Assembly (NCBI GenBank): GCA_008632985.1
Contig: QPGO01000021.1
Span: forward strand, 434,001-498,000
Direction of reading: 5' to 3'
Origin: Psammoneis japonica
Lineage: Eukaryota
Length of the DNA: 64,000 nucleotides
The position numbers and the translations under genes were made by a program. The notes under the pieces were generated by a model. That model saw only the letters and a program-made list of their open reading frames with translations. It ran no database searches and was not told where the DNA came from. The first letter of the stretch is position 1; each line of letters opens with the position of its first letter. Positions 1 to 36,698 of the stretch are shown here, in pieces.

Positions 1-175
1 TCTTGCTCTTTGTTGCTCTTCGGAAGAATGAGTGAAGCAAACGAGAGAAGAGCAGAAAAAACCGTCATTTGCTCGCCAAGTTCGCGCAAGCACGTTCAAA
101 TTTGAATTCAAATGGTTTGCATGACCCAACGGTCAAATGCGGGTCATTTGCCTCGTCGCACTGCACAAGGTGGGC
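1..175 (-). repeat. Split direct repeat, copy A2 (truncated by window edge)
   Basis: Gap-free match to 6017-6191 with 6 mismatches (positions 21, 66, 67, 113, 120, 154). Confidence 0.95.
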
Positions 176-384
176 GGCTCACGCCGCCCGTCTTGTTCCT
201 TCTCCTGCGGCTCTCTAGCGCCATCTAGAGATCTTCCAATGATGGACTGGAATGGCTTTGCTGGCAGATGTGCAAGCCTCATTCCCAAAAACCCAAGCTG
301 GAACGGCAGGGCCTTCCAGCAACCACCCACAGTGCCGTGCACTTTTGGGAGGGTGGGTGGGTTGAGGCAGGAAGGCTGTGGTGA

Positions 385-1503
385 TCAGGCGTCTTGAGGA
401 TTTTGAGGGACGTCAGCATTGGGGTGGAGGACGAAGTCGCCACCGGCGAGCATGTCGCGAGCGAAGTTGCGCATGACTGGTTCTGCTTGCAAGTGCAGGT
501 GTCGCAACATTTCGTCGGATCGCCAGCGGCCTGAGAGCCGAATGAGATCGGTGTCTGCGCGGGCACAAAGGAGGGCCATTGCTCCGGCGGCACGAAGACA
601 CCGAGCGGCAACATCTCGGGTGGTGAAGCCGAGATTAGCCGGACCGAGAGCAGTGACAGCATTGCGCAGCATGCTGGTGATGTCAGCCGGGAACACACGA
701 CGCCAGGTGTTGTTTTGAAAGTGAACACCAAGGGGTGTGTCAGGGAGCGCACCGTGGGTGCGCAAGTGTTGGACACGGCGGATGAGGGCTTGAACCGGGC
801 ACAGGTGGGGGTGACCGGAAAGACCAAGCCCTGGAACTTCGCCTCGCACTCCATTTTTCTGGGTGGCAAAGGTGAGAGTGGCGAAGTCTGCTGTGTCAAG
901 GTGTGCAAGTGGAACTTGCATGGCACCCAGGTGAGCACCACCAGACGCAAGCCGGACATCGGCGAGACGAAAGGGGGTGGTGTCTGATGGTGTTGCGGTG
1001 CACTCGCCAGGCCGTGACAAGAAGAAAAAGGCAAGTGCAATCATTTCAGCAATGGCTTGTGTGCCCGGGTCATTGCTGAGGGCTGCGGCGGTCATAATCC
1101 ATTGCAGCACTGCAATTGGGACCGGTTTTACGCGGTCTGGGGGTGGATCCTGCTTCTTGTAAAAGCGGACTTGCCGGGTGAGGTGGAAATCCATTGTGCC
1201 TTGGGATGTGTGGCGTGGATCCGGGGACCCCATTGCAGCGAACGTTTGGCCAACCGAACGTGCGGCATCTTCAGCGGTTCTTCCACGGACGGGATTGCCC
1301 ATCGGCGCGAGGACTCCTGTGCGGTGTCGGTGCAAGAAGACTTGGAGGAAGACAACAGGGTCGTCAACGTCTTCGAGGAGTGGGTCAATGGCCAAAGAGG
1401 AGCAGAACTCTCGCCATTTGTCCCAATGGGTGTTGGCGGCGGAGGCTCTGGAAGAGGTGACGCCATGCTGGACTGCGCGTTGAGCAGCATTGAGATCACG
1501 CAT
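385..1503 (-). pseudogene. Tyrosine recombinase of Ngaro element; catalytic Tyr mutated to His
   Basis: Motifs FFFLSRPGEC (cf. FFFLLRPGEY), TFATQKNG, ARCLRAAGA, GRWRSDEMLRHLH (cf. GRWxSxxxxRY); codon CAC at 499-501; only 1 Tyr in 372 aa. Confidence 0.9.
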
Positions 1504-3365
1504 GAACTCAGTTCTGGTGGAGGCGTCCAGAGACGCCAGGAGAGTTTCTGCAGACAGTGCAAATTAAAGTGGTGCAAAAATTCACGGTTGGACAAAGACT
1601 GCAGTCGTGAGGCATCGTCAGCGGCAGTGTTGAGGCATCCAGGCAGGTGGTCATGCAACCCCAAGTGGCGATGGCAGCGTTGATGGCAGGATTGGCATCG
1701 AAGCAACCGGGAGGCGGGTTTGACGGCAGTGGTGGCACCTTTACGTTGCCAACACATGGTGCCTGAATTGTCGGTGTGTGAAAGACTGGCACGTTCACGG
1801 ATGTCAAAACAGTCGGCGGCGCCGAAGGACTGAATGACACTGCCGGCAAGTTCCAGGTCTGTGTTGGTGATGGGACCGCGTGGGTTGGAGAAAGTGGAGA
1901 GTTGACTGCTGACACTTTTGGGAAAGGGCAGTCGCCACACTGCAGGACCCGCATCTCTCTGTTGACAGCGTCTGCAATTGCCAAAACGGAGAGTGGCTGC
2001 TCTGGGTGCTGTGGCACTGGTTGGCAGGAGGACGCCGCCTGCGCCGTGACCTGCAGCATCATGACAGCCAGTGAGTGTTGGTTTGAGTGGAACCAATTCT
2101 TGAATGCGAACGGGTCGGGCGTCTAGGGTAGATTCTAGATTCCGAAAATCATCTGGTGCGCAGTGCGCATTGGCGGAGATCCGGACGCGTGAGTCCGGTG
2201 TGGTGTGTCGGAGATTTTCTTGGAGTGCTGAGAAGAGACCCCGGGAGCCAGGGACAGCAATGCTCAGAGAGCGTAGCTCTCCCAGCAATTTCTGACAATC
2301 GGAGATGGCAGCACGTTTACGTGTGCGGGGGAAATCCTGGTGCAGCATTATGTGAAGTCGGGCACGCCGTCGGGGCGCAAGCCGGATGGTCGTGGCGCGA
2401 GCATCTATGAGCCAACCCAGGACTTCTTTCTGCGTGGACCATGTGGCATCACCCTGGCGGAGCTTCTTGATGGAGACGGGCTCTTTGCGGGTGGCTGGGT
2501 CATGTGCATCGAGTGGGCGGAAAACGTCATCGAGAACATGCAGCATTGCATGGTGAACGTTGCGACGGGCTTGTTTCGAACCTTGCGCAGCGCCGAGGAA
2601 GTCGTCCACATAGATGTCGATGCATTGCAAGCGGCGGCACCGACGCGGACGGAGGTGTGGGTCGGGCGCATTGGGAATGGGCACGGCCTGGGAAGCTGCG
2701 GCAACTTGTGGTGGTTGGTGCTTCAGCGGGCGGCTTTCTAAAAGCGATTCCAGTGGATGTGGCGGTGCTTGGACGTTGCGCACCAAATCCAAATTGGCGA
2801 TGTCAGCGACAGTCTCCGTTGCTGTGCAGAACAATGGCGGGGAGTTGGCCCAGCCCATGGGCAAGCGTGTTGGGATTGCAACCAATGGTGGTTCGCCCGG
2901 TTGGTTCGGGAACACTGCACCAAGTGCAGGAGCCTGTTCTGGCGCAACTTGCATGCAGTGACAGCCATCAGCCAAGACGATCTTCATGAGATAGACCGTG
3001 CCTTTTCTGGGATCGGCAAGTGGGATACGGCGTAGAAGGCGGTCGAAGGCACGTCCAAATTGCATGGCTTCCATTGCAGCGTTGGGTTGCGTGGAAGGAT
3101 TCAGCCCATGACAGGCACAGTCTGCAATGGGGCGGGGACGTCGACCATGTTGAGGCACCACGCCAATTGGGCTCAGGCGAAGACCGGGGGTGTGACGCAC
3201 TTCCTCGTAAGGGATGACAACCCAAAAACCCTTCTCGACCACATCGGCCATGTCTTGGCGCAGAAACTCGATGTGTTCGTAGGCGGATTTGTGTGGACCC
3301 CTGGAGATGCTGGCGTCTAGCTCAGCATACGTCCATGGTGCATCGGCGGCGGTGATGGGGGCACC
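1128..3365 (-). pseudogene. Reverse transcriptase / RNase H of Ngaro element
   Basis: LSPIGVVPQ..RRPRPIAD, LPMGWANSPPLFC, IYVDDF, KEVLGWLID, DAAGHGAGG, TNTDLELAG, HTDNS, NTAADDASR. The frame continues upstream of 3251 (..RGPHKSA..FLRQDM) to a TGA at 3366-3368 that is probably CGA>TGA. Confidence 0.9.
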
Positions 3366-5921
3366 TCAGTGCTTGCAAGTGCTCAGCAGTCGGTGAGCTG
3401 GGTGTTGCTTGACTCGGTGGAGTGGACCCCAATCACCTCTGCCGCTGCAATGACGTGACAAGCAACTGAGACCTTTACGACGCAGTGACGCAGCATCAGT
3501 TCGCATGTGCTCACCTGGTTTGTCATTGTAGATTGCGGCAGCAACATCCTGTCCACGGGTGGTGGGGCGGGTGCGCTGCCTCTTGAAATTCTCCACAGTT
3601 GGGGGTTGTGGACGCGATGGCGCGTCGACCATCGCGGATGAAGGCTCTTGGCTCCAAGTCCCCGAACTTGGGCCATTGCCGAAGACCTGTTCGGTCTTCC
3701 AGTTCTCCTCACCCCAGGTGAGAAGGGTGGCCTGTTCGGCGTCTGTGTGGTCATTGCGATGATCATGGGACGAGCCACAGTTGGTGTCACATTGCCCTTT
3801 GTAATGGCAGGGAAAGCAACGAGGACGACCTTGGGCATCTTTGGGAAGTTCGATGTTGTCCCTTGCGCATCGGTTTTTGACATCGCGTGACCTGACGTTG
3901 GGGCGGTCACGAAGGTTGGCGAAGCGGTCATCACAAGAAGGGTTGCGGACTACGCTGTTGCTCCCTGCGGCTTGACTGATGGGGGGCATGTTGGCAGGCT
4001 GGTGTTGAGTTGCCGGGGCCGGTGCGGCTCCCAGCACAGAACTGGGGCTGGCAGCTTGCATGCTGGCGGGCAAGTGCGGGCGCCAGCACATGATTCCTTT
4101 AGCCGCTTCAAACACAACGTTCAATGGTGAGAATGGAAGCGGGTGAAGGGAGGCTTCTTGAGCCTTGAACCAATGGCGGACTTCAATCTGCGCACAGCGT
4201 TGAAAATCCACGGGAAGGGTTGGGCACCCAGCAGCCTGTGCTGCCAACTCATTGGCATGCCGGTCCATGTCTTGACGTTGACGGGTGAGCCACTGGACAA
4301 CTGGATGGTTGGCTCCAAGTGAGGCAGAAAGCACCAGGTGGTGTCCATCGCAGGACTGCTGAGCGGCTTGCATTGTCGTCGCCACGAGCGCCTTGTCTGG
4401 TGCTTCCAGGATCTGCGTGTCTTGGAGGGACGGGGCCACAGCGCCGCCATGAATGTGCATGTACATGGCCTTGCGACAGGCGATCTGCTCGGCACTGTCT
4501 GGCGTGGCAATCCCAAACTGGAATGGGGTGATGCCTTGGGTTGGCTCGTCTTGATTGTGACCAGCAAAATCGAGCTGTACGAGCTTGGTGACAAGGCCAA
4601 CCGTGACTGGTGCGTCAAAATGAACGGCCATCGCCTGGCGTTGCTCGTCAATTGCATTTTGGACGACTGTCAGGCGGCCTGTCTTAGGCGCTGCGGCAAG
4701 GGCGGCCCACACAGGCGGCAGTGCTGTCTCGTTGAGGGCGTGGCACCAATTCATGAGCTTGGTGACACCAAAAGGTCCCCAGAACTCATTGGGAACCTTG
4801 CCCCGGGCAGCCGCTTGTTGACGTGCGGCAGCGTCAAGTCGGAGTTGTCGTTGTTCAGTGGTGAGCTCTTCAATGGCCTGCACAACCGGCTGGAAGTGCT
4901 GCGCGGTGGGTGGTGCACGACCCAGTCTTCCAGGGATGTCCCGCTCCACCTTGGCATCAAAAAATTGAGTGAGGGCTTCGTCAGGGGGGCGTGTCATGAC
5001 AGGCCAAGGTCGCGCCACAACAGATGCCACTTGGTTGTTGGGAGTGGCACAGCAGGCGACGCGCAAGAAGTCGAGCAGTGGTCGGATGGCAGCCACCTTG
5101 TCAGCTGCCGCAGCGGCGCCGTGCACGCGCTGGTGGGCTTGTTTGGGATGCAAGGGCTGTGCCAACAAGAGCGGCACGGACTCAAATGGCACGTGCATTG
5201 CATGTCGTGTCCGCACGACCTCCGAGTTTGGTGCATCCTCAGCCAGATGCGGATGCAGGCCTTCCGCATTGTCAGTGACATGCTCCAGGAGTGCGGCGTG
5301 GGTCGGTGCCCCAGTCCCCTGCTGTGCCAAGTTGAATGAGTCGTCCCCGAATTCGACCAGGGTAAACTGTCCACGGGTTAGGTCACCTGCCATTGCGTGC
5401 GTCTCACCGTCCCAAGGTTCGGCAGGTCCAACCACGGTCGTCGGATAAGTGGTGACGCGGTGCAGGACTTGGATCTGTCCTTCGTCCGCTGTGCCGTCCT
5501 CTTGGCAGTGTGTGATGACTGCCATCGGCTGATCGTGACTTGACGCCGCTGCAACTCGCCCATGGAGTGACCCGGGGTTGTGTCTCGAAGGTCCCTGAAC
5601 CGGAACCGCGAAGTCTGGCATCGACTCATCGCATGCCCCCCGGTGTGGGTCGTCAGCGGCTGTGAGGTAAAAATCCCGATGCATCGCAATGACCGGCGGC
5701 ACTGCCGGCACGGCTTGTGCACCCGGTGGCGGTGGCGGCACGACGGCTCCTGCTGCTTGCGGTGCCAACGGAGGCACCGGGACTTGTGGAGGAGGAGGTG
5801 GGGGAGCGTTTTGGGCTGCCGCGGCAGCTGCTGCAGCTCCTCTTTGCGGTGGAGCAGGGTCGTTGGCATTTTGGGCGTTCTGGGCCCCTTGTCCTGCGTT
5901 TTGCTGCTGTTGCGCATCCAT
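3366..5921 (-). pseudogene. Gag-like ORF1 of Ngaro element (reads through into the pol N-terminus)
   Basis: Long ORF with Pro/Ala-rich N-terminus and a Cys/His cluster (CFPCHYKGQCDTNCGSSHDH) near its C-terminus; same frame as pol; lies directly after repeat A1. Confidence 0.8.
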
Positions 5922-6016
5922 GATGGACTCACCAAAGGTTCTTCCTGCGAACAATGGGGAGCTGCGGCGGAGGCATCCTGCGCCGCGTCGACAGCGTTAA
6001 AAACTGTCTAGCGGCT

Positions 6017-6191
6017 TCTTGCTCTTTGTTGCTCTTTGGAAGAATGAGTGAAGCAAACGAGAGAAGAGCAGAAAAAACCGTTGTTTGCTCGCCAAGTTCG
6101 CGCAAGCACGTTCAAATTTGAATTCAAACGGTTTGTATGACCCAACGGTCAAATGCGGGTCATTTGCCTTGTCGCACTGCACAAGGTGGGC
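6017..6191 (-). repeat. Split direct repeat, copy A1 (5' end of the Ngaro element at 6191)
   Basis: Match to 1-175 stops abruptly after ...CACAAGGTGGGC at 6191. Confidence 0.95.
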
Positions 6192-9100
6192 AGAGTGGGG
6201 CTCATTGGCAGGGTTCAACGAGTGCGTCCACATCCACCTCCAGCAGCAGCTTTGCAACATCATCTCATTGCTGATGTCCTTCCAACCAAGACAGGTTTTC
6301 CTCTCTTTGTTGGCACTGTCACCAGTCAATGCTGAAGACAGAGTGCCATTGCCCTGAGGAGCTTGTGCCTCCAGTGAAAGGTGCTTTTCTTGCTGTCTTT
6401 GTTCGCGGAGTCAAGCACCAGCACCCCCTGCAAGAACTTTCTCTCTTTGTTGTTTGAAGCTGTGACACTCTGTTGATTTGGTGTGTCTGCTGTCATTTGG
6501 AACTCATCAAAAGTGCAAACACTCATGGATCATTTCCCAGACAGACAACTCATTGTGGCAAACCAAAACCCCTGTCTGCGTTTCTCAATCTTGACCACAC
6601 CACAACCAAATCTCCTGCTGTGGTGGTGCAGCGTGACACATGGATGGATTCTGGGATCTGCAGTTTGTCATCTGCCCTTGTTTTGACTTGTCTTGCACTT
6701 GCCCCCAGATGAGCAGATGTGCTCATTGGGGTGCACCACAGCAGCCCTCTGCTCTCCAACAGCAGAGAGCAGGGTTGTTGAGTGTGCTGGTGCAATTTTC
6801 CATGGCAGAAAAAAAATCCCAAAGTGCAGTCTGGCTGTGTGTCATGAGAGAGTTTGTCCCATGTTCTGGGGCAGGGATGTGCGCACTCTTGTTCCTTTTT
6901 TCTGAAAGCACCACAATGTCAAACAACAGCAACGGCGAGCAACAACAACATTGACAACCCCAGAAAATGTGCCAACATCAACTGCCAATGTGGTGGAATG
7001 GCCATGAGCACCCATGCATGTCCTGGTCATCATTGTCAAAACATTTGCACCACATGGCATGTGTGGGGTGGCTGCAAAAAAGCCCACCCAGGCACCTGCA
7101 CCTTGTGTTGTGCCCCAATTTCAAAAGCAACAGACCCACTCAAACAGCACCACACCCACCCTGAGAGGATCTGGGGTTCAGCAGAAACAACAGCTTCCAC
7201 CACCACATCAGCAAGAGGGCCAAATCTTCCTCCAGCTGCAGACATGACAAACAAAGAGAAGAGATGAAAAAGCGGGATGTGGAAAGCTGCTGCAAGACAG
7301 AAACAAATGTGCTCTCACAAGCCTTGCTCTCCATGCCTGAAACCCTCTGGTGCAATCATGCAATGCTGTGGTGCACTTGCCAAGTTCATGCCTTTTTGCA
7401 ACAATGCAAGTCTTGTTGCAACCCCACCCATTTCCAAACTGTGAGCATTGACAAAAATTCAACGAGAAGAAGTTGGAGACACCAAAATGGAGTGGTCCAA
7501 AAACAATGTCAAAGAAGACTTCTTTATGTTGGCAGCCCCGCCAAGTGTGTTGTGAGCTCAAGCTGTGCTGTCTTACAACAAGGGAGCAATCATTGCCAAG
7601 CACAGCTCCAAATGCATCAAGTTGCTTTTGAGCTGCAGCACCATGGTCTGTGCTTGACAAAGAAATGAGTGACAGTGCCCCAACTTCAGTGGCTGAATGA
7701 GCAAAACCTGGGTGAGCTGATGATGCCAGCAGCAGGACACTTGATGGCAGGACATGAGCCCAGTTTCCAATCATGCTTTGCTCGTCATTCATCAAATTGA
7801 GGAAATCCCACAGAGAGAAGAAAGCTTGGAGGAAACTCAAGAGCAGGGTGGTGTGAACGCCTGCATCTCAAGCAAGCTGTGCCCAGCACCCACAATTTGT
7901 GCACTGAATGAGCTGCAGCAAGACAGAGTGAGTCTTGAGACATTGTTGAAATTAAACAAGAGAACAAAACAGAGAGCTCAAATGCACCCACACTTGTCAC
8001 TCAGCTGTGCCAGCCAACTGCCGGGCCACACTGCCCTCCCACCAAGGCAACCACAAAGTCAAAATGCCAAGCAACAAAGAGTTGTGGTGTCAAATGTGAG
8101 TGGGGGCAACAACACCAGCTTTTGCAGGGGGGCAGAAGAAACTCCCTGGTCATTCACACCAACAGAAAGAGGGGGAGGGCAAAGCATGGGTGCTCAAACT
8201 GCTGGTTGCATCAGGGATGATTGCCAAAGCACCAGCAGCTGACAAAGTGCACTCAGTCTGCAGCAAAGGGGAGTCAGCCATCAACACTCTTCAAGCAATG
8301 CAAAAAGACAAGTGGCACAATGGGCACCCCAAGCTCAGGATGCAATGCACACAGCAGCAACAACACAATGAGATGACATTTGCTGTCTCAGCCATGGTGT
8401 CATTCATGTTGCACTGTTGCACATCAATGGAAAACCCCAAGTGTGCAGAAACAAGAAGTCAATGATGAGTTGGTGCAAGAACATGCCAAACAGACCTTGG
8501 TCATGAAGTGCAATGAGAAATGCATGTGAGGGTGCAACACACACAACAAGGTTGACTCTGACAATGGCGCGTGTCATGTCAAGAGTTGCAGTGTGTCGTG
8601 GAGCTGCTGGTGTGTGCCAACAGAGAAAACTCCAAATTTTCAGGAGCAAGAGAATGAGTGGTGAGTTGGCACAACATGCAACAAGACAGATCACAAAAGT
8701 TGAATGCAGTGTGAACCTTGCATGGCACAAGCAGTGCACGTGCAACATGCACAACAAGGCAGTGGTTGTGTTGAGTCAGCCACAGCATCACAACAACAAA
8801 AATCCCAATTTTGCAAAAGCAAAACAATGACCTTAAAAAGAAACAGACCACAAACATCAAATTCAATGAAAGCAACATTGATGGAACAAGCACAAGGTGA
8901 GAAAAACATGCCACATGGCTTTTCTGCATCAAACACACCCGGGGGGGGAGGGGGCAAAAAGTGAGACCAGAGGCAAAGCAATCAAACTGTCTTCTCTGGC
9001 AACACAACCAACCACTTTTCCTCACTGTGGCATGTTGATTCATTTGCACTGATGGCTCACACATGGGCCCAAACTGCAACCTAAGAAAATTGTTCCATGG

Positions 9101-11131
9101 CAGGGAAAAAATGGGGGACACCTGTGCCACCAGCAAAAAAGCCTCGGCTCTCCTCCTCACAAACAATGTGCCAACAAGAAAAAAGGCAAAAGACAGGGTG
9201 GCAAGGTGATGGCAAAGCAAAGCCACACACTGACCCAATGGCACCAAGCCCATTGCTTGAAGACATTAAATGCGCTGGTCTGCTTGTGAACAAACCAGCA
9301 CACTTTTGCACAAAATTCATGTGCACCCCAGAGACACTTGTCACTTCTCAAGCCTCCACTCTCTCACACACAACACACTGCACAGAGGAAAAGCCAATGA
9401 GATGCCTCAGAATCCAAAGAAGAAATGCACGACAATGAAGAAGCAATCAAAGAAGTCAAGCCATCTTGACAAGAACTCATCAAGCAGTGATGATCTCTTT
9501 GCCAACATCAGACCCTAAAGAGATGGAAGATCAACAACCTGACACCAAGATGATCTTGCCAACAACCTTGTGTGAGCAAGAATCATGTGCACTCCTCCAC
9601 TCCATTGGAAAACTTGGAAGAACAAGAGTCAGAAGCAGAAGATGAGCCATTGGAAATGTGAGATAAAATCAGAAGATGTTCAACACATGGCTGACAACTC
9701 TGTCAAAGCCAAAAGCACTCTGAGTGGTCCCCCAAGAATCTCAAAGCAAGCGCTGGCAATTGTCCAAGAAATCCTGGGTCAAAACACACCAGATGGAACA
9801 TGTTCAGGGTGGAATTGGAGTGTTCCTGTGGAGAGCGGTGAGATCTTTGAAAGACACTCCAGAAGAAATGCTCAGCAGCTGGAAGCTGTTCAGTTTGGCA
9901 GGAAAGCCAAATGAGCTGAAGGTGACAAAGAAGCAAGTGTGCAACTCCATTGTGTCAAAAATGACAATGCTGTCATGCAACCCAGTGCACAGAGCAGTTG
10001 TGTTGGAGAGATCTGTGTGGTGAATTTGGTCTTCAAGAGAAGCTTGAGTGTGGACAAATCTTTGAGGAGAACAAAATGATTTGAGAGATTGCAAAGGAGA
10101 AATGTCAGATTCTGTGTACACATCATGAAAAAAAACCTTCCAGTGCAGCAACAGACACGGTGAGAAAAGAGAGACACCTGCAGAGACTGATCTCTGCAAG
10201 TTTGCTTCAATCACTGGGTGTCCACCATTTGAAGAATTCAAAGAGGAGCAAGGTGTGGAGGAAGATTTGGTGCACATTTGCTCCCAACCCCTCTGGAACA
10301 GAAGGCACAGAGGTGCAACATGAAGCACAGCAATGAAAGAGCACAGATTTCTCAAGAGCATTGGTTCAATTCTCCATCAAGAAGAGCTCCACTCATGCTG
10401 TGAAAAAAGAGCAGAAGCCAGCAAGAGACATGAAGAGACACCAACACAGGCCACATCATTGCAACTGGGAAAGCATGCCTGGCCCTCCAAATGGCAACAG
10501 GGCCAGACAGATTTGGGTGGAAGAAACAAGCAAATGGAGAGTCCACTTGACTGAGCAAGGAATGGAAAAGACATGCAAAACCAAGGGAAGGTCAAGATGC
10601 AGACAAACAAAAATTGAAAGGAGCACAACACTGTTCTCATGAAGAAAGAGCCCCTGTTGTAAAAATTCAGATGCCTCACAGACAGACTGGCAGCAGAACA
10701 AGTGCTCCAAGAAACCTGTGAGAAAAAGGGGCAGCTGAGATCTCATGAAGCAGCCTCAATCCCATGGTGTGCAGCCAGGTTGCATGAAACTTGAGCCAGT
10801 GTGATGCAACCTGGTGGTGCCCACCCACAGCTTTGTTCCATCAGGCCATGGAGGAGAGCAGGTTGTGCTTGCAAGTTCTTCAACAGGGTGGGGAACAACT
10901 GGAAACAGTTTGGAGCTGCTGGTGTGTTGGAGGCAGGAAAACTGCAAGCATGTCTGTGACAGCGTTGGTGTGGTGCACCCAACACTTTCTTCCACACCAA
11001 GTTGATGAGCAGGAGTGCCAAAGGAGGCAAGGACAGAGAGCAGCATGGCACACAGCAGTTCTGGCCTGTTTGCTTTTCAATCTTCAAACAATTCAATGAT
11101 GCACATGGAGTGTGCTCATCATCAATCAATG
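6192..11131. other. Heavily decayed repeat-like sequence (TpA- and CpG-depleted), origin unidentified
   Basis: Hand count about 1 TA and 4 CG in 8001-9000; dense short Cys/His-rich ORFs in all frames without recognisable motifs. Confidence 0.6.
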
Positions 11132-11136
11132 GCAAG

Positions 11137-11414
11137 TGACAGAAACTGAAGGCAAATGGCAAGAATTCAAACTACAACTCCTCACTGCTGTCTAAATGGC
11201 AGATGAGTCTCCGCTCAGAGACCGTCACAGGAGCCAAAAGACGTGCAAGTCAGCACAATCGGGCCACTGTTGTCATTCTTGTGAGCCGTGTGGCTTGAAA
11301 GCAAACTGCATTGCGCGCGCACGCGTGGAACTAAAGAGCACACAAAACTGTGCACGGCAAACTAAACAGCGCGTGACATTTCGCGCACACCTGAATCCTG
11401 TTCAAATCCTGTCA
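11137..11414 (-). repeat. 3' LTR (278 bp)
   Basis: TGACAG..CTGTCA inverted termini, adjacent PPT and TSD; 11248-11414 aligns gap-free to 15483-15649. Confidence 0.92.
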
Positions 11415-12390
11415 CTCCCCAGTTTGCTTGAGGAGTCACAGAAACAGATTCGACTTCGGATGGAATGAAGTTCCAAAACATGAGGGGACAGAGAAGGTCC
11501 CAGATTTGGGAGCAACCCCAATGCTTGCTGAGAATGTCAGCAGGGTTGCAGGAGCCTTCGATGAAGTGGAGCTCAAGGTGACCAGAGGCAATCACCTCAC
11601 ACACACGATGGAATGACAGAGCGGTGTGTCACTTGTGTAACTTGGAGTGCGGGATGGTGGCACTGTCCACAACCGACTTGTTGTCACCAAACACGTCGCA
11701 CACTGGGTGCACTCGGATCTTCTTGTGTCCCGCAGGAGGAGTGGAAGACTTGGAGGGCCCACAGTCATGAAAGACTTTGCATTCATCGAGTTGGTCCATC
11801 TTGAGATTGGTTGCATCTCCCCATTTGCGGTTGCCGTTGCGTTCGTCTGGGGACATGGCATGTTTGCAGTTCCGGGAAACTTCACATCCACACTCACAGC
11901 GAGGTGCAGTGCAGAAGGAGCAAAGCTTGGCTTGGTTGGCCATGCGGAACAGCTTCTTCTGGCGCCTCGCGATGGTGCGGAACCGCTTCCAGCCATCAGC
12001 GTCGAGAAGTCCGTTCTCTCGTGCATAGATGGCGCAGGTGACAGGGTCATCCTTGGTGATGATGGCAAGAGGCTCGGACATGATCTCCCCACTTTCCCAT
12101 TCAAGCATGATGTTGCAGCTTGAGCCTTTCCAGGTTGGGTCATGAGGCTTCAGAGGTCCTTCATGTGACACAATGTGTTGAAATTTCCAAACAGCAGTGT
12201 CTTCGTCTTCTTGCTCAATGTGATTCATGATGACAGAGCAGACGAACTCAGTGAACTTGGGGTTGCCATTCACTTTCCAGTTGTGATCTTCAATGGCCTT
12301 GACGATGCGAGCTCTGTGGCATTGTCCATCCTCTTGTGGCTGCATGAGGAAGGTGCGTCCAATGATGTCTTGCAGATCAAAAACTGGCAT
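11362..12390 (-). pseudogene. Copia pol remnant: post-integrase region fused to RNase H C-terminus (RT deleted)
   Basis: DIIGRTFL, WKFQHIVSHEGPL, EWESGE..EPL..DDPVTCAIYA.ENGLL..GWKRF, GHKKIRVHPVCDV joined directly to FGDNKSVV..PHSKLHK*HTALSFHRV..NPADILSKHWG. Confidence 0.9.
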
Positions 12391-12498
12391 CTTGGGTGTC
12401 CTGATCTCCCCACCAGGTGAATCGACGGGGTTGTCGTCATGGCGAGATTTGATGATGGGTTCAGGTGGCTCCCCATCAGGAGGATCAAGACGCAGGTT

Positions 12499-14528
12499 TC
12501 AAATGGAAGGATCGGTGGTGGTGGATCGTACATTGGACCGGCAGAGGATCTTCTGAGTGATGGCGATGCACTGCAAGCCGTTGGGCACCTTGACAGAGCG
12601 ATCGTTGACATCGTGTTTGTGCCATTCGAGCTGGCCACAGGAATGAATGGTCTTGCCCTTTCCCGTGTGTGCGCGCTGGTGGAGGATGGCGATGACGGGA
12701 CCATGCTGTGTCTCTATGACAGCACCAGTGGTGACAATGGGGATGTCCACCAATTGATGGTCGTCAACACCCTGAACGTCGACTTGGCGAGAGGTGTGTG
12801 CAATGACGCGAACGTCGTCACCAGCAATGCCGCCGTTGGCTCCACGATCAACTAGAGCACCAGTGCATGTGGAGCGATGAGCAGAGGCAGAGCAAATGAC
12901 ATTGTGGTTGTCAACGCGGCGGCAAGTGCGGCCGTTAAGTTCCATGTCATCTGGAGGAGCAGGCGAGGCAGAGGGAGCGGCGGATGGGCCCGGTCGACTG
13001 GCTTTGGGGGCTTGGTTAGGAGACAACAGGCGTTGCAGATCACCGGGTGGTGGTGGCTTGTGCTTGGTGAGATGCGCTAGAATGGGATTGTCTGAAGTGG
13101 CACCCACATTCGGAGCGGGATCACCAGAGTCAGCAAGAGTCATGGCGGACAAGTTGACATCACCGTCACTCCCAAGTCGTTGGTCGTGAAGGTTGACCGC
13201 AACGGACTCATGGCAGTTGCCGGCTCGTGGGTTGCAAGGAGGCGGCCGAGAATGCCCAAGGATGATCGCCTTGGAGGAATTGGGCAACGAATCCCAAATC
13301 CGTTGGTGGTCGGGAGGGAGACGTTTCCATTGGTTGCCGGTGAGGCTGGGACCGCGGGTGCAGGCAGCGTTGGCCTGAAGGACGTCAATGTTGCTGTCGA
13401 TGTCACAGAACACATCATCGGATGGTTCCTCGGAGCAGACGTCATGTGCGTGTGTGACGCGGCAGGGAGCTTGAGGTGTCGTCTTGGGTTGAAATGTGCT
13501 GTCGCATTGAGCCGCCGCGGAGAGGAGCAAGCCACAACACTCTTGCCACTCTGCGTGCGATGTTGATCAGCTTGGTTCTTGACGGCGAGGAGTTCCTCGA
13601 CAGGATGTGCGGCATTCTCGAGCATGACGCGCTTCTGTCCTTCAGAGAAGTGGTCACTGGCTGGGATGAGTGCCTCGCATTTGCGCAACTGATCCTGCCA
13701 ATGAAGGATGAACCCGTGGGTCGGACCTTTCCAAGTGCCATCACCAAGGCGTGTGGTGGTGAGGTGCGTGAGCAAGGTGGAGGACTCGATGGATGCGTGG
13801 GTGGAGGCAAGTGCATGCTCGGACAAGGCGCGGCAGATGGTCTGGGCATCAGAAGACCCCACATTTTTGTGAATGAGAGCCTTGCCCTTGTCGGTGAGAA
13901 GGATGCGTTCAAAGACAGCGAACATGCACTTTTGCTGTTCAGCAAAGAGCAGTTTGTCTTCGGGGCTGGTCGGTTTGTACGACGAGTCTAGAATGCACTC
14001 GACGTCTTGGGCACGGGCTCATGCCACAAGTGAGGTGTGCCAAGTGTGCCACTGCTTGTCGGATTTGAGAGCCGTGAAAGCATTGGGGTCATGCTTGATG
14101 CCTTGCTTGAAGTCTCGCACTGGGTCGCGTGCCTTGGTCAGGATGGTGACATGCGGGGGTGCAAGAGGTGAGCTGCCGACGGACACAGAAGACATGCAGT
14201 CGGGGCTGAGGCGGTGGGAAAGGAACTCATCATGCGTGAACAATGAGGAGTCATTGGCAACATCAAGGCCTTTGTGTGTTTTGACAATGTACAGACTAAC
14301 TGGAGCTGCCAACATGTTCTCACAACCTTGGGGCAATGGGATCACATTGGTGCCGTTGTCACACTCAAGCGAGTCGATTTGGGAAGGCATGAACGTGAAC
14401 AGTTCTTGGCGCGAGTCCATGCCGTCATGGGTCAAAGCCAAACAAAGAGGGCTTCCAGCACCTTGGGCAAGCATGGTTCCAACAACGTGCTCGAAACCAT
14501 TGGTTTGTTGCTGACGAGTGAGAACCAT
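12499..14528 (-). pseudogene. Copia gag-protease remnant
   Basis: FKQGIKHDPNAF..KQW..W, A*ARAQDV (internal stop 14019-14021), MFAVFERILLTDKGKAL, FILHWQDQLR, MLENA; frameshift near 13530; protease LVDRGANGGIAGDDVRV and TIHSCGQLEW. Confidence 0.88.
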
Positions 14529-15482
14529 GGCAGACAAAAAACGGTGTCAGGGCAAGTGATTCTTGTCAGGACGTGGAGGTGGACTTGAAACTTGAGTGGG
14601 AATGGACTTGACTTGAAATGGACTTGACTTGAAATCTTGAACTGTCTTAAAATCAGAAGTTGCCGGGTTGTGCTGTCCCATTCATTGTCAAGTGCTAAAC
14701 TTCCCATCCGGTCCGCAGAGTTGTGCCGGCACGTCCGAACCCACAGCCAGCGGCGCTTTGGGTTGCTTGCGAGCAGAGCAGTGGGTTGTAAACCCCTGCA
14801 GGCAAGCTGACTGGAGGTGGACAAGACCCCCGAACCGTTCTCATTTTATGTCAGTTGGATTTCCCGATCAGGCTGGCCAGTTGACGCAGGCGTTGGGCGC
14901 TGTGGACGAACGAACAAACGCGGGAAAACACCCTCGCCCCAACGCAGGCTGCAATCACGGCCACTTGCTCTCACAGTCGTCCTCGTGGACCTGGCAGAAC
15001 TGCAGAGCACCAGCAGTCCGGGGCAGATCAGGTGCAAGAGACTCGGTGTGCCTGTAGAGTGGTGGCAAAGCCGCAGTCCAAAGAGTGGGTTCAAGTTCTT
15101 GGCCGTGAAGACACACACACACATGTCTTCAGCGACGAAGATCTTCGAATGTGTGGGGCTCTTGACCATTGACCGTTGAATGGGTGTGTCAAGGGATGAG
15201 GATCAAGGACAGACTTGGACACAACCGTTGAATGTGTGTCTTCAGCGACAAAAGGCAGCACAATCAATCCAGACATCCAGCGGTGAGGAGAGTTGACGGT
15301 GACGTTAAATTCCTGCCAATGCCTGGCATTGAATGCGCGTCCCGCAGACTTGCCGATGCACACATGGGGCACATGCGGAGGTCCACGCAGAATTGAAACA
15401 GCATCGTCGGCAAATCAACGACGACAATGGCGGTTGCTCAATGGGTTGACAATGAGCAAGACTGTCAATCTTTTTTTTTTTC

Positions 15483-15649
15483 AGTCGGTGCAATCGGGCC
15501 ACTGTTGTTGTTCTTGTGAGCCGTGTGGCTCGAAAGCAAACTACATCGCGCGCACACGCGCAGAACTGAAGAGCACACAAAACTGTGTGCGGCAAACTAA
15601 ACAGCGCACAACATTTCGCGCACACCTGAATCCTGTTCAAATCCTGTCA
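15483..15649 (-). repeat. 5' LTR, truncated after 167 bp and followed (minus strand) by A11
   Basis: Aligns to 11248-11414; T11 at 15471-15481; the part equivalent to 11137-11247 is absent. Confidence 0.9.
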
Positions 15650-15654
15650 GCAAG

Positions 15655-18600
15655 CGCAAGAGCAACGATGCATGCAATCAATTCATTCCATCCTCAGCTG
15701 TCTGCTCCAATTTGGGTGGTCCAGGAAGCACGTCATTGGCTCTGGGTGTGTCAGGCACCATGGTGTTGGATGAGGGTGTTCTGCGGGAGTGTGTGGTGGG
15801 GGAGGTGCGCGAAGCGTGCTTGGTGATGGGGAGAAAAAGGGTGGGCCAAAAGTGCAGACAGACGGTCGGGATGAAGAGTTGTCAGTGAGAACAGGATGGT
15901 GGATGAGTTGATCTTGGCATGAGGAGAGATGATGAGAGAGGGTGCAGCTGAAGTTGAGGCTGAGGATTTGAGAAGCCCAAAGTTGAGGTGCAGTGGTGTG
16001 GTGGGAGGAGCCAAAACGGTCAGGAGAAAGTTGTTTCCAGGCCAAGTTGGAGTGGACGAGGACATTGGAAGGGGCAAGCAGTGAGTTGGTGAAGGCGAAA
16101 AAGGGCGCTTGGGAGTTGGAAAGGGTGGGTGGGCTTGTCCAAGGTGGCTTGGGTGGGAGGGGTGGGGTGGAGGCGGATGTTGAAGCAGAAGTGCCAAAGA
16201 AGAAGATGTGAAAATGACACCCGATTCCGCCAAGATGGTCAAAGGTGAAGGGGAGAACTGGGGATCACACACTCAAGTTTGAGAATGCAGCAAATGGAAG
16301 ATGGCTAGACTCTTAGTGTGTTTTCTGCACACAACAAATGCGGGCACTTGCCCATCGTCGTGTGTCATTCTGAGTCACGAATGGTGATTCGTGGGCAAAA
16401 AAGGTCTGAAATCTGTCCTTTTGAGAATGAAACAACACGGTGAAGTGCGGGTCACCATGGTGCTCTTTGAACACCAACATGTCAAAATTCAATGGGGCAC
16501 ACGACTGCGTCTCGACCGCAATTAAGCTCAGCAGATAAACTTGTGCTTGCACAGCCATGAGACGCTTTCATGCGCCCCATTAGATTTTGAGATTGTGGCA
16601 TTCAAAGAGCGCCATGGAGCTGACGGTTTTTTGATGTTTTTGTGTCAGCAATGATTTCCCTGTAGAAACCCAGCACAATCGCATGCGGGTCATTTCAGAA
16701 ATCTCTTGGATGCAAATTTAACATTTCTCAACAGCAGTTGATGCAATGTGCGGCACAATCAAGAAAATGCCAAAAAAGACTGACCCCACCAAAGCTGCGG
16801 CATGCACTGCCATGTGTTGTGCAAAGGAGGGGAAGTCTCTTTGTCTTGCAAAGGTCAGCCAAGACGTGAACGAGAAACATTTTGGAAATCAACAGAATTG
16901 TGGCGGACACAATGAGCCAAACCACGTGCACTGCTGATGAGCCTTGGTTGCCTCCACCATTTTGAGAATGGCCAATGTAAAGAAAGGCAACTGCTCTGGC
17001 TCCAAAAACAATGAGCAGCCAACCAAGGCTTCATTGGATGAGTTGCAATGAGCGGGAAGTCGTGAGAACTGGCATCTTTTTGTTTGGCATCATGGCTCAG
17101 CACAAGTTTTGGTCTGCTGCCGAATTTGTGACAAGCGGGAAGACACAAGAATTGGCACTGTTGTTCAGCACTAGTTTGGCACTGTTTGCCAGCACAAGTT
17201 TTGTGCCATCTGCAATTTGTGAAACTTCATCCTTGTCCAGCTGCAGGAGTGAACCTGGTGCATTGTCCCTGGGACTCGCCGTCATGACCTTCCATTGCAG
17301 AATTGTTGCTGTGGGTGAACTCAAGGCCAGCCAAGTCGGCATCAGCAGCACCGCCAAACCAACAGTCTTTGCGAATGGATGCCATGTTCCCATCATTGTT
17401 GATGGGAGTGCCGTGCCACGTTCCCCAATGCCGCTGCTGACAGCATTCTCATCACAATGCTTGCAATGTGTGCGAGGCTGCACAAGATTTTGATTGCATG
17501 TGCGGTCACCGTGCAAGATGTTGCAAAGATGGGTTCCAGTCCTGGGTGGGACTCCGTGTGACATTGGGCCCGCAGAATTCCATGTGCAAGCTCCTCAGCA
17601 AATTTGCTCTGCAATGAAAATGCAAATGATTGCCAACAGAAAAAGAGGCAATTTTACGAACGCATCTCCTCCTCCACACTTGAAGCACATCATTGACAGT
17701 TTGCATGGGCATGTTCTTCAGACATCAAAGAACACACCCAGCACATTTTCATTCTCACAAATGTTGAAAATAGAAAGCCTTTGGCTTGGCAAAACAGGGA
17801 GCATGAAACACAATTTCGGAGAACACAACACATAGAAATGCACATGCGCAACATGCAATGCAATCCAAAAAACCATTGATGTCACAGTGCAGCAGTGCGA
17901 AGTCCCACCCAGAGCTGGAGCGCATCCAAACACAGAACAACACACAATGAGGTGCGGTCTGTCCAACCTCACATTGCTCCCAGACTTCAGTGCGTCATCC
18001 CTGCAAGGGGAGAAGGAAGAGTCTGGCTTGGTTGATGGCGTCGATGATGTCAGAGTTGGGAGCGGATGGTGCAGAGCAACCGAGCAGCTTGATGGACCAG
18101 CTGCGCTCTCATGGTTTGGCCGGCCAAGTGGCTTGCCTCGCAGGGAGGGACCCGGAGAGGTGTCTCGCAGTCACATGAAAGGTGCACGTCAACCAGGCAT
18201 TGTGTGCCAATCAGGGCCTTGAAGTTTGAGTTGTTTTTTGGAATTTTTTGAAAAAATGGGACCTCGTTGGTCTGTGAAAGGAGGAGCAAACGGAGCGTGA
18301 TTTTTCAAACCGGATGGATGGGTCTGACTTTTGTGGACCAAGTGCAACACATGAAGATGGATGAGGAAACAATGGTTTCAGGGTTCTGTCTGTGCTGCGA
18401 TGCATGGAACACCGATCATGAAGTTGAGACCAAAATTCAGAAAAAGAGCTCATGACACACCACACAATTGCATGAAAGCACAAAGGTCTCCAAAATGGTT
18501 CTGCAGATTTTGTTGTCATTCGCTCATGTTGTGCAGCTGAGTAAAAGAGGTGTTTTGGAAACAAGAAAAGTGGGGGGATTCTGACTCGTTTTCGAGATAA

Positions 18601-21480
18601 AAGGCACCAAAGTTGTTAAAAAAAACAGCACGAATGACGTCACTGCCTGCAAAAGTGTTCTTTGACGAGAACGCATGTGAGGAGTTGCAAATGTTGTTCG
18701 TGAACATAAAAGTGTGATTGTGTGACGCCAAGTTCGCCAATCGTGTTTTTGAAGGGCCACACGACAGCATTGTGATGATTGTGACCCAGTCATGCTGTAG
18801 AATGATGCAAATGATCACATCATGTCATGACACATCATGTGACATCGACATGTTGCCTTTGTTTTGACATGGCCAATTGCACAGCAATTTGTCATTGCGA
18901 CAAATGAAAGAGCATTTCGTTGGTTCTTTTCCTTTGACAAAAATGTCGCAAATCTCAGGAAGAGTTTTCTGATTGGCCAAAACACTTGGGGACAATGCCC
19001 TCTGACAAAACATCACACAAGCCCCACAAAACAATCACTTGAGCCCCTTAAAACTGACACAGCACCCATCTGCCTGTGCATGTGTTGTGATTGCAATCAT
19101 CACAGTCCCTGCCACTGTGATCGCACCAGCCAAAGACAAAACAATGACAGGCGACGGGATGCCTGCAGCCAATGGCACAAACATTGGAGTCCTCATCACT
19201 TTGTCAGAAGCAAAGCCTGAGATGTCAAGATTGAGAAGCAGTCCTCCGGCCAGTGCATCGAAAATGCAGCACACAGAAAAAGAGTTTTGTGCTTGCACAC
19301 CATGACCATGCTTTGTGCAGTTTGTTCCCTTGCCATTTTGTTCTGTCATGATTTTCAGTGCCTCACCATGAATCATCTGTGTGTGGTTTTAAATTGTACA
19401 GCAGGTTCTCTGCTGCTCTGCATTGCCAGAAACTCCTTCACAAAACATGGCCCACTTCCATGCACACGCTCCATGCTTGTGTGTTGCTTCAGCACCTTGC
19501 TCAAATCATCAGCTTGTCCAGTGCATGCAAAACTTTGATGACAAGCACAAGACAGAAACACAGCAAAACAACAAAACTCTTTTGCAGGGGTGCAGCTGGT
19601 GCATCTGGGGAGCAAAGCCAATTGGCGTGCTTTTTGCAACCTCGGCAGGGTGCCCTTGCCTTTTGCCTTTGCAGTGCCTTTTTTCTCTTCTTCTGATCCA
19701 GTGCTCCTGTTCCCTTTTTTCAAGATCATGCACATGACCCAACTTTGAGTTGTCTCCAGTGACTTTGCTCACCCCAGTTTGTGGCACGACCCCTGCTCTC
19801 ACTTGCAAACCCAGCCCTGCTGGCAGCTGGAAATGAGCTTTCTTGTTGTTTTTCTTCATGCACAAAAACAGCTCAGCAGCAGCTTCACTTCAAGCAAGAG
19901 ATCTGCTTTTGGCAACTGCCATCTGGCTTTGTTGGGTTCTTGTGACTGCAGCTCTTTCAAAGAGCAAGCTGGTGTGTCTGGGTTGCCACCTGGCGCTGCC
20001 CCCCAAGCTGCAGCTGCTGTCCACACAGCACACTCGCACCACAGCACAAGCTGGGTGAAGGAAAATCCTTGAGAAACTGGCCATTTCATGTGAAAACTGC
20101 ATTTGGAGGAGTTTGCTCTCAGCTGCTTGGATGTCAAAATTGAGCCCATTGCAAAACAAACAACCAGCTTGTCCTGGCGAGTGGACCAAGCTGGGACTTC
20201 TCTTCCACCCCAGTGAGGCCCCCCTCTTTGCTTTTCATTTCACATTGCTTTCAACACAAGAGTCTTTGTGACTTGATTTCACCTTTTAACACAGCACAAC
20301 TTGCGTGGCACTTGAGCTTTCTTTCACAAAACTTGCAATTCATGCCAACCATGGAGCTGTCTGAGAATGCAAATCTTTTGTTTTTCCAACAGCAAAACCT
20401 GTGTTTGCTGCAGCAGGTGCCTTGCTGCTGTGTCTTCTGTGCACCAGTGCACCATTTCTTGTCCCATCTGCTCTCTTGCCCCCTTGACTTCAAGCTGCTG
20501 CACGCCACAACTCAGGTTGCACCAAATGTCCCAGATCTCCAGGAGGCACGATGGTGCTGCAGCTGGCACTTGCCTGTTGGGCCCTTCTTCTTTCTGATTT
20601 TGTCAACAGCCAGCCAGAGTGCCAACACTCAACATTTGCCGCACCACCGCAACAAGCCTGTCACCTTGCTCTGCTGCCCCCCCTCCTTGCCCACATCATC
20701 CATCATCCCATCACCTCTTTCCATCAATCATGTGCCCGCCCACCCAGCACCACCTTTCCTCCTTCTGTGGCCACCCAAGTCTGCGCGCAACTTGTCCCGT
20801 GTGCTGCTGAGGTGAGCCTTGTTTGGGGGGGGGGGTCATCCCCACGTTTGTCCCAAAATTGCCACTGCACTTGAATGAGGTTTTTTGTGGTGTTCATTTT
20901 TGAACACAAGAATCATGCATGGTCACACCCGATCGTGCACGAAAACGAGAACCATCAGCACCGCAATCGAAGCACGACAATGATGACAATCATCGACATT
21001 TCTCAAAAACGAAGTTTGCCGTCTGCCAACTTTTCATGTGTGTGCAATCTTTGACACGAGTTGGCAGACGGACCACCTCCGACACAGACTCATGGCTTGT
21101 TGTTTTCACCACGGTGAAGCGCGGTGAAATTCACAAAAAATCATGCAAAACACGAGTTGTTCGGCCAAATTCGAGCCAAAAAAGCAGCAACCGACCACCC
21201 TTGATGGGTTTTTGGAGATGCCTGTCCCGTTGAAAAATTTTGCGAACTTTTTTTTGCACATGCAAAATCTCAAGAATGAAAGACAAAATCGAAAATCGGC
21301 TTTCGTCACGCCACACAGGACACTCTGCTGTGTGGCGTGATGAAACCCGATTTTTGAGTTTCGTCATGGTGAGACCCCCAGAGCCCGTGCAAATTAGTGA
21401 CAACTTTTTGTCCTCAAGCATTTGCACAATGTGCAAGTTTGCACGAACATTGCGAGCTCCAAGAGAGAAATGTCGTTACA
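15655..21480. other. Decayed TpA-depleted mosaic of unidentified elements and gene fragments
   Basis: TA nearly absent; 17500-17930 is homologous to 33830-34250; a protein-like hydrophobic ORF at 19035-19376 (-); non-coding A/T-tract-rich stretches near 16300-16720, 18230-18960 and 20900-21500 resemble transposon ends. Confidence 0.55.
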
Positions 21481-21731
21481 TGCATGTCGATGCCGCAATG
21501 TGCACATTCTGGCTAGAACATAAAAAATCTATCGCCAATCAACAAGCGACAGTCATTGTCACTTAGGAAATCCCAATGCTTTCAGAGAAGGTCAAAGCGT
21601 CCCAGAGATGTCCATTCGACATGAGACACAATTCGTCTTGAAGAGCTCTTTACGAGCTTTCTCTTGATATATAGGTTATGGGGTCTATGAGGACATCCTG
21701 AAAAAAAGTTCGCAAAATTTTTCACCGGGAC
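21224..21731. repeat. 31-bp inverted repeat pair (MITE-like or subterminal repeats of a DNA transposon)
   Basis: GTCCCGTTGAAAAATTTTGCGAACTTTTTTT (21224-21254) vs reverse complement of 21701-21731: 1 mismatch. No clear TSD. Confidence 0.7.
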
Positions 21732-36588: not shown

Positions 36589-36698
36589 TGAGAATCAAGC
36601 AGAAGTCAGTCATGCCGCCATCGCTGATTGAGTCCCGGTTTTCGTGGTGGCGGCAAGACATTTCTGAAATAACACGACGACTCCTCCACTCTTTTCTT

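Follow-up and report, generated by a model that had tools for sequence, protein, structure and literature searches.

Near-saturating conversion of TpA to TpG and CpA in blocks of a Psammoneis japonica contig, probably reflecting editing of integrated mobile DNA

Introduction

The closest described counterpart of the pattern analyzed here comes from the chlorarachniophyte Bigelowiella natans, for which a preprint (Mettrop et al., bioRxiv 10.64898/2026.01.13.699255, 2026) reported TpA-restricted hypermutation of integrated nucleocytoplasmic large DNA virus (NCLDV) and virophage DNA. According to its main text, 231 of 302 new single-nucleotide mutations in 15 mutation-accumulation lines fell in one NCLDV and one virophage region, and 230 of these 231 were A>G or T>C changes, without exception located at TpA. 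Mutations arose in these regions at ~6e-7 per site per generation, which exceeds the background ~1,000-fold, and did so in some lines only. The NCLDV region was single-copy and transcriptionally silent. The B. natans genome was further described as containing 124 clusters of TpA-poor, CpA- plus TpG-rich windows, with reverse-transcriptase and DDE domains enriched in the TpA-poor coding sequences. The authors proposed an ADAT2-like adenine deaminase, and their Discussion notes that ADAR-type enzymes favor a 5′ U; diatoms and flanking context do not come up in the main text (bioRxiv 10.64898/2026.01.13.699255). Here, we analyzed a window of 64,000 nucleotides from the diatom Psammoneis japonica (GenBank assembly GCA_008632985.1, contig QPGO01000021.1, positions 434,001 to 498,000 of the forward strand; all positions below are those of the window), in which TpA is nearly absent from four blocks that include two mobile elements.

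Diatom transposons are CpG-methylated, and diatoms have a DNA methyltransferase, DNMT4, that is related to RID, the enzyme of repeat-induced point mutation (RIP), and for which no function is known (Hoguin et al. 2023, PMC9998398). We searched the literature for accounts of TpA being lost from the repeats of diatoms and found none. A preliminary description of this window knew of no account of such a system, a view that is out of date, since the same signature was measured in the B. natans mutation-accumulation lines (bioRxiv 10.64898/2026.01.13.699255). We propose that the blocks probably reflect host-directed, TpA-specific A:T>G:C editing of integrated mobile DNA, with adenine deamination on either strand as the likeliest chemistry.

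Results

TpA is replaced by TpG and CpA in four blocks

Dinucleotide composition was analyzed as the ratio of observed to expected counts (obs/exp). In a 1-kb scan, TpA obs/exp was 0.02–0.23 from position 1 to ~21.4 kb and also at 32.4–35.0, 43.4–48.2, and 54.0–56.0 kb, compared with 0.42–0.89 in the rest of the window. A 200-bp scan delimited these TA-poor blocks, hereafter blocks A to D, to 1–21400, 32401–35000, 43401–48200, and 54001–56000. Pooled, the four blocks contained 126 TA in 30.8 kb (obs/exp 0.07), where ~1,088 would be expected, and the DNA outside contained 1,320 TA in 33.2 kb (obs/exp 0.59). The numbers on which the preliminary description had based its claim of near-absence all hold, and its hand counts were exact: one TA in 8001–9000, three in 7001–8000, and 19 in host DNA at 22501–22800.

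The loss of TpA was matched by its transition products. TG obs/exp was 1.68 in the blocks versus 1.15 outside, and CA obs/exp was 1.69 versus 1.19. AT was nearly constant (0.85 versus 0.88), as were AA and TT (1.27 and 1.21 in the blocks, 1.16 and 1.15 outside), so that the TG and CA excess with unaffected AA and TT, which had also been noted beforehand, was borne out. CpG obs/exp was 0.48 in the blocks and 0.94 outside, and the GC content of the blocks was raised. With the TA-normal host DNA of the window as the baseline, the deficit of TA plus CG amounted to 1,888 and the excess of TG plus CA to 1,981, indicating that TG and CA, which stand in the middle of the series of pyrimidine-purine transitions, make up for the lost dinucleotides. 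The blocks held 3,210 TG and 3,081 CA; thus, both strands were affected equally, in agreement with the earlier claim.

Change-point fits showed that five of the seven block edges are abrupt (21477, 32293, 43296, 48269, and 56119), with TA density stepping between ~2–3 and 35–50 per kb within tens of bases. The remaining two edges, at ~34953–35314 and 53733–54255, are gradual. An inverted repeat pair of 31 nt (21224–21254 and 21701–21731, 97% complementary and 446 nt apart) spans the sharp TA boundary at 21477. Were this pair one small element, the boundary would cut through it, which would favor position-dependent (chromosomal) editing.

Repeat copies were converted independently

Block A contains two mobile elements with direct repeats, both on the minus strand, and self-comparison of the window allowed their repeat copies to be compared site by site. 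Element 1 (1–6191) has terminal direct repeats at 1–175, cut by the window start, and 6017–6191, and element 2 (11248–15649) has direct repeats of 167 bp at 11248–11414 and 15483–15649. The element 1 repeats are 96.6% identical and those of element 2 are 89.8% identical, and both pairs become 100% identical when written in purine/pyrimidine letters; all 23 mismatches of the two pairs are transitions. From the complete absence of non-pyrimidine-purine changes in ~340 bp per pair, we infer that TA conversion was at least 100–200 times faster than ordinary substitution.

Sites that read CA in one copy and TG in the other (CA/TG doubles) are informative, because such a pair requires a TA or CG ancestor that was changed on different strands, and the copies must therefore have been converted independently. 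Five repeat pairs within the blocks showed 22 CA/TG doubles in 780 aligned bp, as compared to one in the 1,478 bp provided by two control pairs with normal TA (Fisher p 9e-10). The element 2 repeat pair alone showed five CA/TG doubles, two TA/TG differences, and four differences of CG against TG or CA, with one TA and 10 CpG conserved. A third copy of this repeat is located at 54559–54743, within block D, and a hand count of the three-copy alignment gave eight CA/TG mixed sites without CG and two sites at which TA was left in one copy. TA was conserved only in CTAA contexts, and many CpGs were conserved. Given this high CpG retention, less than one mixed site would be expected from CpG, indicating that the mixed sites go back to TA and not to CG. 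Approximately 85% of TA per copy of the element 2 repeat is converted.

Among the controls was a host gene that encodes a secreted cysteine-rich protein and occurs as a tandem duplicate. Its copies lie at 30991–32180 and 35417–36588 on the minus strand and have normal TA. They are 91% identical over 1.2 kb, with 43 shared TA and one CA/TG double in 1,200 bp. Since this 1.2-kb duplicate keeps its TA, duplication as such is not the trigger, unlike in RIP. The claim of the preliminary description that the process is targeted to repeats is therefore not upheld: the tandem duplicate is spared, and block C is affected at single-copy depth. The product of the duplicated gene has a signal peptide and no Pfam family (open reading frames (ORFs) of 279 and 290 aa), and block B sits exactly between the two copies.

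Conserved tyrosines are lost from element-encoded proteins

We analyzed the proteins of both elements at columns conserved among their relatives, namely 322 columns among 60 relatives of element 1 ORF2 and 112 columns for the part of the element 2 ORF at 13140–14018. The ORF2 copy in the window keeps 267 of the 322 conserved columns but only one of seven conserved Tyr; of the six lost, four read CAC (His) and two read TGT (Cys). Its Tyr content is 0.7%, versus a median of ~2.0% in 120 listed relatives, and its Cys content is 2.8%, versus ~0.6% in the 45 relatives compared. Similarly, the element 2 protein keeps 82 of 112 conserved columns but only one of 10 conserved Tyr, two having become TGC and two CAT or CAC, with Tyr at 0.3% versus a median of 4.0% and Cys at 2.7% versus 0.7%. 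For both proteins combined, two of 17 conserved Tyr were kept, whereas the other conserved residues persisted at 347 of 417 positions (p 8e-10).

The codons CAC/CAT and TGT/TGC can be derived from TAY but not from CGY, and they thereby provide direct evidence that a single coding strand underwent both TA>CA and TA>TG changes. Along one ORF, Tyr>His alternates with Tyr>Cys, and Val-to-Ala (GCA) changes are also present in the element proteins. Thus, the damage at TA-containing codons that had been described earlier was recovered for Tyr>His, Tyr>Cys, and Val>Ala in two element families.

Survival of TA depends on the flanking bases

TA survival by flanking bases was calculated as retention in the blocks relative to host DNA. 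No ATAT was retained (none left, compared with 85 in the host sample). Retention then rose through ATAC/GTAT (0.016), ATAG/CTAT (0.054), CTAC/GTAG (0.063), GTAC (0.073), ATAA/TTAT (0.095), GTAA/TTAC (0.138), CTAG (0.167), and CTAA/TTAG (0.205) to TTAA (0.465). This context dependence was evident against host DNA (chi-square 115) as well as against 80 intact relatives of element 1 (chi-square 105; 9 degrees of freedom). A model with one neighbor per strand fits roughly, with the 3′ order T > C > G > A, which is equivalent to the 5′ order A > G > C > T. The heterogeneity of TG/CA per 500 bp in the blocks was no greater than in host DNA, and this measure therefore speaks neither for nor against processivity.

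TA density was 6.3 per kb in element 1 (TA obs/exp 0.15, CpG 0.83, GC 58.5%) and 5.0 per kb in element 2 (TA 0.10, CpG 0.75). It was 2.3–2.6 per kb in three sub-blocks with CpG of at most 0.21, and intermediate in the 15.6–21.5 kb sub-block and block B. TA loss is thus strong even where CpG is intact, as in elements 1 and 2, indicating that TA conversion is the faster process and that CpG decay is separate and slower. Newly formed TA, by a rough estimate of ~2–3 per kb, would equal the number of survivors, such that old blocks would fit a single editing event as well as continued editing.

Conversion of TA to TG or CA never makes an in-frame stop codon, because TAA can only become TGA or CAA. 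Stops in block A, counted on both strands, comprised 70 TAA, 57 TAG, and 921 TGA; the corresponding counts for a 10-kb host stretch were 152, 208, and 356. The persistence of frames of 876 and 745 aa is explained by this property, and no function is implied by it.

Intact relatives of element 1 have normal TA

Element 1 is a hypermutated copy that resembles DIRS-like (tyrosine-recombinase type) retroelements in its terminal repeats, its reverse transcriptase (RT) ORF, and its relatives. Its ORFs, all on the minus strand, are the gag-like ORF1 with a zinc knuckle (3366–5996), ORF2, an RT with a YVDD motif (1128–3365), and the overlapping ORF3 (385–1563). ORF2 has more than 850 relatives, with a best identity of 62%, and PF00078 is on record for some of them. 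ORF3 of an intact relative matches eukaryotic Phage_integrase clusters at 0.98, a single language-model match that we treat as a lead only. Judged from the sequence, ORF1 to ORF3 and the terminal repeats fit a DIRS-like tyrosine-recombinase retroelement, the type that the preliminary description had suspected, with the recombinase itself as a lead.

The RT family of element 1 is frequent in marine and freshwater metagenomes, where it occurs as free-standing contigs of ~5.5–6.5 kb with three ORFs. The best 80 of 423 confirmed metagenomic matches, mostly whole contigs of ~6 kb, were analyzed, and all 80 loci were TA-normal, with obs/exp of 0.45–0.84 and a median of 0.63. Since metagenome assembly favors abundant young elements, this sample reports how intact copies look and is silent on hypermutated copies elsewhere. 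These results indicated that TA depletion is not a property of the element family, and intact copies free of TA, which had been named beforehand as an outcome that would speak against mutation, were not seen among the 80. Pfam matched none of the ORFs in the two intact metagenomic copies examined.

Element 2 is the second mobile element, recognized by its direct repeats and by a gag-like ORF at 13140–14546 on the minus strand, which has 63 relatives. To look for further element copies, 40 relatives were compared with the window by tblastn, and only the two loci already described were recovered.

The signature is present in assembled sequencing reads

Run X1 resembles contigs of genomic and apparently short-read DNA, with a word depth of ~51–64 on single-copy contigs. 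One X1 contig of 4,178 nt, at a depth of 63.9 compared with 51–61 for host contigs, covers 41735–45875, which comprises 1.6 kb of host DNA and 2.6 kb of block C, and matches the window with no mismatch. Misreading of modified bases, which had been put forward earlier as a test of the claim, is thereby made unlikely. Run X2 showed spliced joints with CT..AC ends in genes and no cover over blocks B and C, although missing cover does not equal silence. In 26184–38370, X1 and X2 contigs carry other bases than the window at single positions dispersed over host genes, at full depth (e.g., 26184 T>C and 29551 G>A; for X1, 40 of 361 variants were considered). Such full-depth differences indicate that the window represents another haplotype or strain than the contigs, or a consensus.

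Other TA-poor sub-blocks and host genes

The remaining TA-poor DNA was searched for signs of its origin. The TA- and CpG-poor sequence at 6192–11247 (TA 0.04, CpG 0.10, TG 2.04, CA 1.70) has no Pfam family in its ORFs and is probably old, degraded mobile DNA. The TA-poor sequence at 15650–21476 (TA 0.06, CpG 0.44) ends abruptly at 21477 and contains, at 17833–17926, a copy of a high-copy repeat of block B. By the change-point fits, block B, the TA-poor insert between the two host-gene copies, extends over 32293–35092 (TA 0.07, CpG 0.37), with its right edge gradual to ~35314. It has an internal direct repeat of 155 bp (32427–32581 and 33297–33449) and a segment of a high-copy family at ~33880–34546, where the summed X1 contig depth was 19,918 versus ~55–65 in adjacent bins, a depth that is not to be read as copy number. 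Many X1 contigs break or join within this segment.

Block C (43296–48268; TA 0.04, CpG 0.15) has single-copy word depth and contains long ORFs at 47031–48236 on the plus strand and 45451–46512 on the minus strand. A search with the ORF at 47031–48233 against 1.84 billion representatives gave one match only, at E 3e-4, and no convincing relatives. Block D extends over 53976–56118 (TA 0.04, CpG 0.21), its left edge being gradual from ~53733. A Pfam scan covered 241 stop-to-stop block ORFs of at least 70 aa at E ≤ 0.01, eight of which were re-scanned at E ≤ 10. The sole Pfam signal among block ORFs was a match to DUF6589 below the cut-off (E 0.0036) in the ORF at 34630–35313, which runs across the gradual right edge of block B. 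A self-comparison in purine/pyrimidine letters, built to see past transitions, revealed no repeats beyond the plain blastn set, and none of the blocks proved to have terminal inverted repeats when inverted and tandem repeats were searched for.

The TA-normal stretches encode a GH47 mannosidase, GlcNAc-transferase I, an FAD monooxygenase, a cyclin, a bestrophin, a ZIP transporter, and a PHD-finger protein. The best named relatives of the GlcNAc-transferase I are from diatoms (Grammatophora, Mayamaea, Seminavis, Fistulifera, and Nitzschia), at ~50–55% identity, which agrees with a diatom source that has no closely related sequenced species in the database searched. Tandem repeats of 48 and 189 bp (92–94% matches) were also observed at 49815–50495, within a host ORF of 465 aa (49464–50861, minus strand) that has no Pfam family.

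Discussion

We propose the following course of events. The blocks would be integrated mobile DNA, comprising at least one tyrosine-recombinase retroelement, one more retrotransposon-like element, and several remains beyond recognition. In this foreign DNA, and as part of the chromosome, adenines preceded by T would be deaminated on both strands under the direction of the host, such that A:T>G:C transitions, on whichever strand of the duplex, would turn TpA into TpG or CpA. This conversion would approach saturation and would outpace other substitutions by two orders of magnitude or more. Each copy was converted independently, with each TpA resolving randomly to TG or CA, and copies consequently diverge by CA/TG doubles. 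The reaction depends on its neighbors, with purine-TA-pyrimidine the most sensitive and TTAA the least, and the elements keep long frames yet lose Tyr and other TA-containing codons. In older blocks, a slower and separate decay of CpG to TpG or CpA, expected from 5-methylcytosine on diatom transposons, would be superimposed. The sequence itself shows the signature, the independent conversion of copies, the damage to proteins, the dependence on context, and the sharpness of the limits; host direction, action after integration, and the chemistry are what we infer from the pattern.

Several observations weigh against this proposal. The window holds no enzyme, guide, or chromatin evidence. Identity as a mobile element was reached for only two of the seven sub-blocks, and no Pfam transposon domain was detected in the 241 block ORFs. 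Of the element classes named in the preliminary description, one probable tyrosine-recombinase type retroelement and one further family are supported, and a long interspersed nuclear element (LINE) was not confirmed. The terminal repeats of element 1 hold only one CA/TG double; either this repeat had few TA or it was already TA-depleted at copying. ADAR and fungal ADAT editing favor a 3′ G, and the 3′ order observed here differs, which calls for caution in naming an enzyme. X1 may be the source of the window itself, and its agreement with the window is then not independent. Furthermore, the five razor-sharp edges fit the arrival of already edited DNA equally well as precise targeting, and independent conversion of both terminal repeats also follows from editing of free double-stranded DNA before integration.

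These last two points lead to an alternative that we regard as unlikely, namely that a host or element-borne deaminase acted on free double-stranded retroelement DNA, much as APOBEC3 does on retroviral cDNA, and that the chromosome was never targeted. Five of the seven edges are sharp within tens of bases, both identified elements replicate via reverse transcription, the flanking genes and the 1.2-kb duplicate are untouched, and the independent CA/TG resolution of terminal repeats is what an edited full-length double-stranded copy would give. However, known editors of this type act on single strands with a strand bias, and here TG equals CA. TA density also falls along with CpG decay, suggesting continued exposure, although the estimate of newly formed TA leaves this open. 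In addition, the preprint describes the B. natans signature as having arisen in long-integrated, single-copy viral DNA during asexual growth (bioRxiv 10.64898/2026.01.13.699255).

A by-product of base modification appears rather improbable. Within silenced chromatin, an enzyme would alter the T or the A of TpA, possible products being thymine oxidized to 5-hydroxymethyl- or 5-formyluracil and a modified adenine, and the altered base would mispair at replication and cause the same transitions. The signature is blind to whether T>C occurred on one strand or A>G on the other, and the flank preference shows that an enzyme or chemistry reads the sequence. Dinoflagellates replace much of their thymine by 5-hydroxymethyluracil, with a preference for TpA. 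Nevertheless, we found no evidence in the literature of a modified T or A base in diatoms, and the exact match of the X1 contig indicates changes fixed in the sequence and not a standing modification. Such a by-product would differ from host-directed editing in chemistry and intent only.

An artefact of sequencing or assembly, in which a modified base is misread and a true TA is reported as TG or CA, is very improbable, even if X1 should be the origin of the window. Strand-specific misreading would yield two versions, one all-TG and the other all-CA, each with half the depth. In fact, the two products are intermixed, the block contig has a depth like that of host contigs without a mismatch over ~4.1 kb, and neither TA nor CG is produced at converted sites. 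Finally, native composition or selection, with families that avoid TA because of a TA-specific nuclease or TA-targeting transposons, can hardly be entertained: long ORFs do survive and the catalytic YVDD is among the few Tyr codons left, but the former is explained by the inability of the conversion to make stops, 80 of 80 relatives are TA-normal, 15 of 17 conserved Tyr were lost, and a given site may read TG in one copy of a family and CA in another.

If host-directed editing is the correct explanation, a saturated case in a diatom would show that the process is not confined to one species, and its targets would extend from integrated giant viruses to ordinary retrotransposons. The flanking-base rule is a constraint for any candidate enzyme, and diatoms with genetic tools would be a place to look for it. 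In practical terms, the TA-poor blocks escape domain-based annotation of transposons, as Pfam recognized none of 241 ORFs. Long ORFs of spurious appearance nevertheless abound in them, and gene prediction in genomes of this type should therefore filter for TpA. An enzyme of natural origin that makes A:T>G:C changes at TpA in double-stranded DNA, if real, would also be of interest for base editing. More tentatively, and with doubt prevailing, one might imagine that a dedicated double-stranded DNA editor with a purine-TA-pyrimidine preference is a general arm of genome defense in algae of the stramenopile-alveolate-rhizarian (SAR) group, shared by diatoms and chlorarachniophytes and either ancient or repeatedly acquired. 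It would be saturating on all integrated mobile DNA in diatoms, its long scrambled frames could seed new genes, and the enzyme would rank as the first one from nature to edit adenine (or thymine) specifically at TpA in double-stranded DNA.

Comparison with known systems

None of the established processes of RIP, 5-methylcytosine deamination, and strand-biased editing can give the pattern, as the preliminary description had rightly argued: the direction is opposite to RIP, CpG is intact in elements 1 and 2, and the strands are equal. RIP in Neurospora and other ascomycetes resembles the present case in that dinucleotide-specific transitions strike both strands of mobile elements, within rather sharp boundaries and independently in each copy of a family. 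However, RIP turns CpA and TpG into TpA, lowers GC, and creates stops, whereas here TpA is removed, GC is raised, and no stops arise. RIP, which depends on the sexual phase and on RID, also requires duplicated sequence, in contrast to the window, where the 91% identical 1.2-kb duplicate is spared and block C, at single-copy depth, is affected.

APOBEC3 and ADAR likewise cause deaminase-type hypermutation of mobile elements with a preference for neighboring bases, but they act on single-stranded cDNA or RNA and are strand-biased (G>A or A>G), whereas the strands here are equal; the B. natans precedent, as its main text reports it, acts on chromosomal DNA. Deamination of 5-methylcytosine also feeds TpG and CpA and is seen in the older blocks (CpG 0.10–0.44). 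It cannot, however, remove TpA, whose loss is complete in elements with CpG of 0.75–0.83.

By analogy, we take the process to be of the same kind as the one that, in B. natans, hypermutates integrated viral DNA at TpA only. As far as the preprint describes it, both cases show almost exclusively A>G or T>C changes, at TpA only, that give TpG or CpA depending on the strand, both have regional limits, and both affect single-copy DNA. In B. natans, the process is confined to foreign DNA; here, two sub-blocks are mobile, host genes are TA-normal, and searches of the other five sub-blocks did not reveal their origin. The hosts differ, a chlorarachniophyte (rhizarian) there and a diatom (stramenopile) here, as do the targets, which are giant-virus and virophage inserts there, whereas the identified targets here are retroelements. 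TpA obs/exp is given as 0.45 for the NCLDV region, with a cluster cut-off of 0.43, whereas it is 0.02–0.15 here and thus near saturation. The rate was measured there, whereas here the signature is a fossil one, in which a hierarchy of flanking bases is visible. The present finding is not new in kind: the phenomenon was already reported in 2026, and the blocks represent a second case of it, one that is saturated and directed at retrotransposons. For diatoms, no earlier case seems to exist, within the reach of our literature search, and the finding adds the sequence-context rule and the consequence that no stop codons are created.

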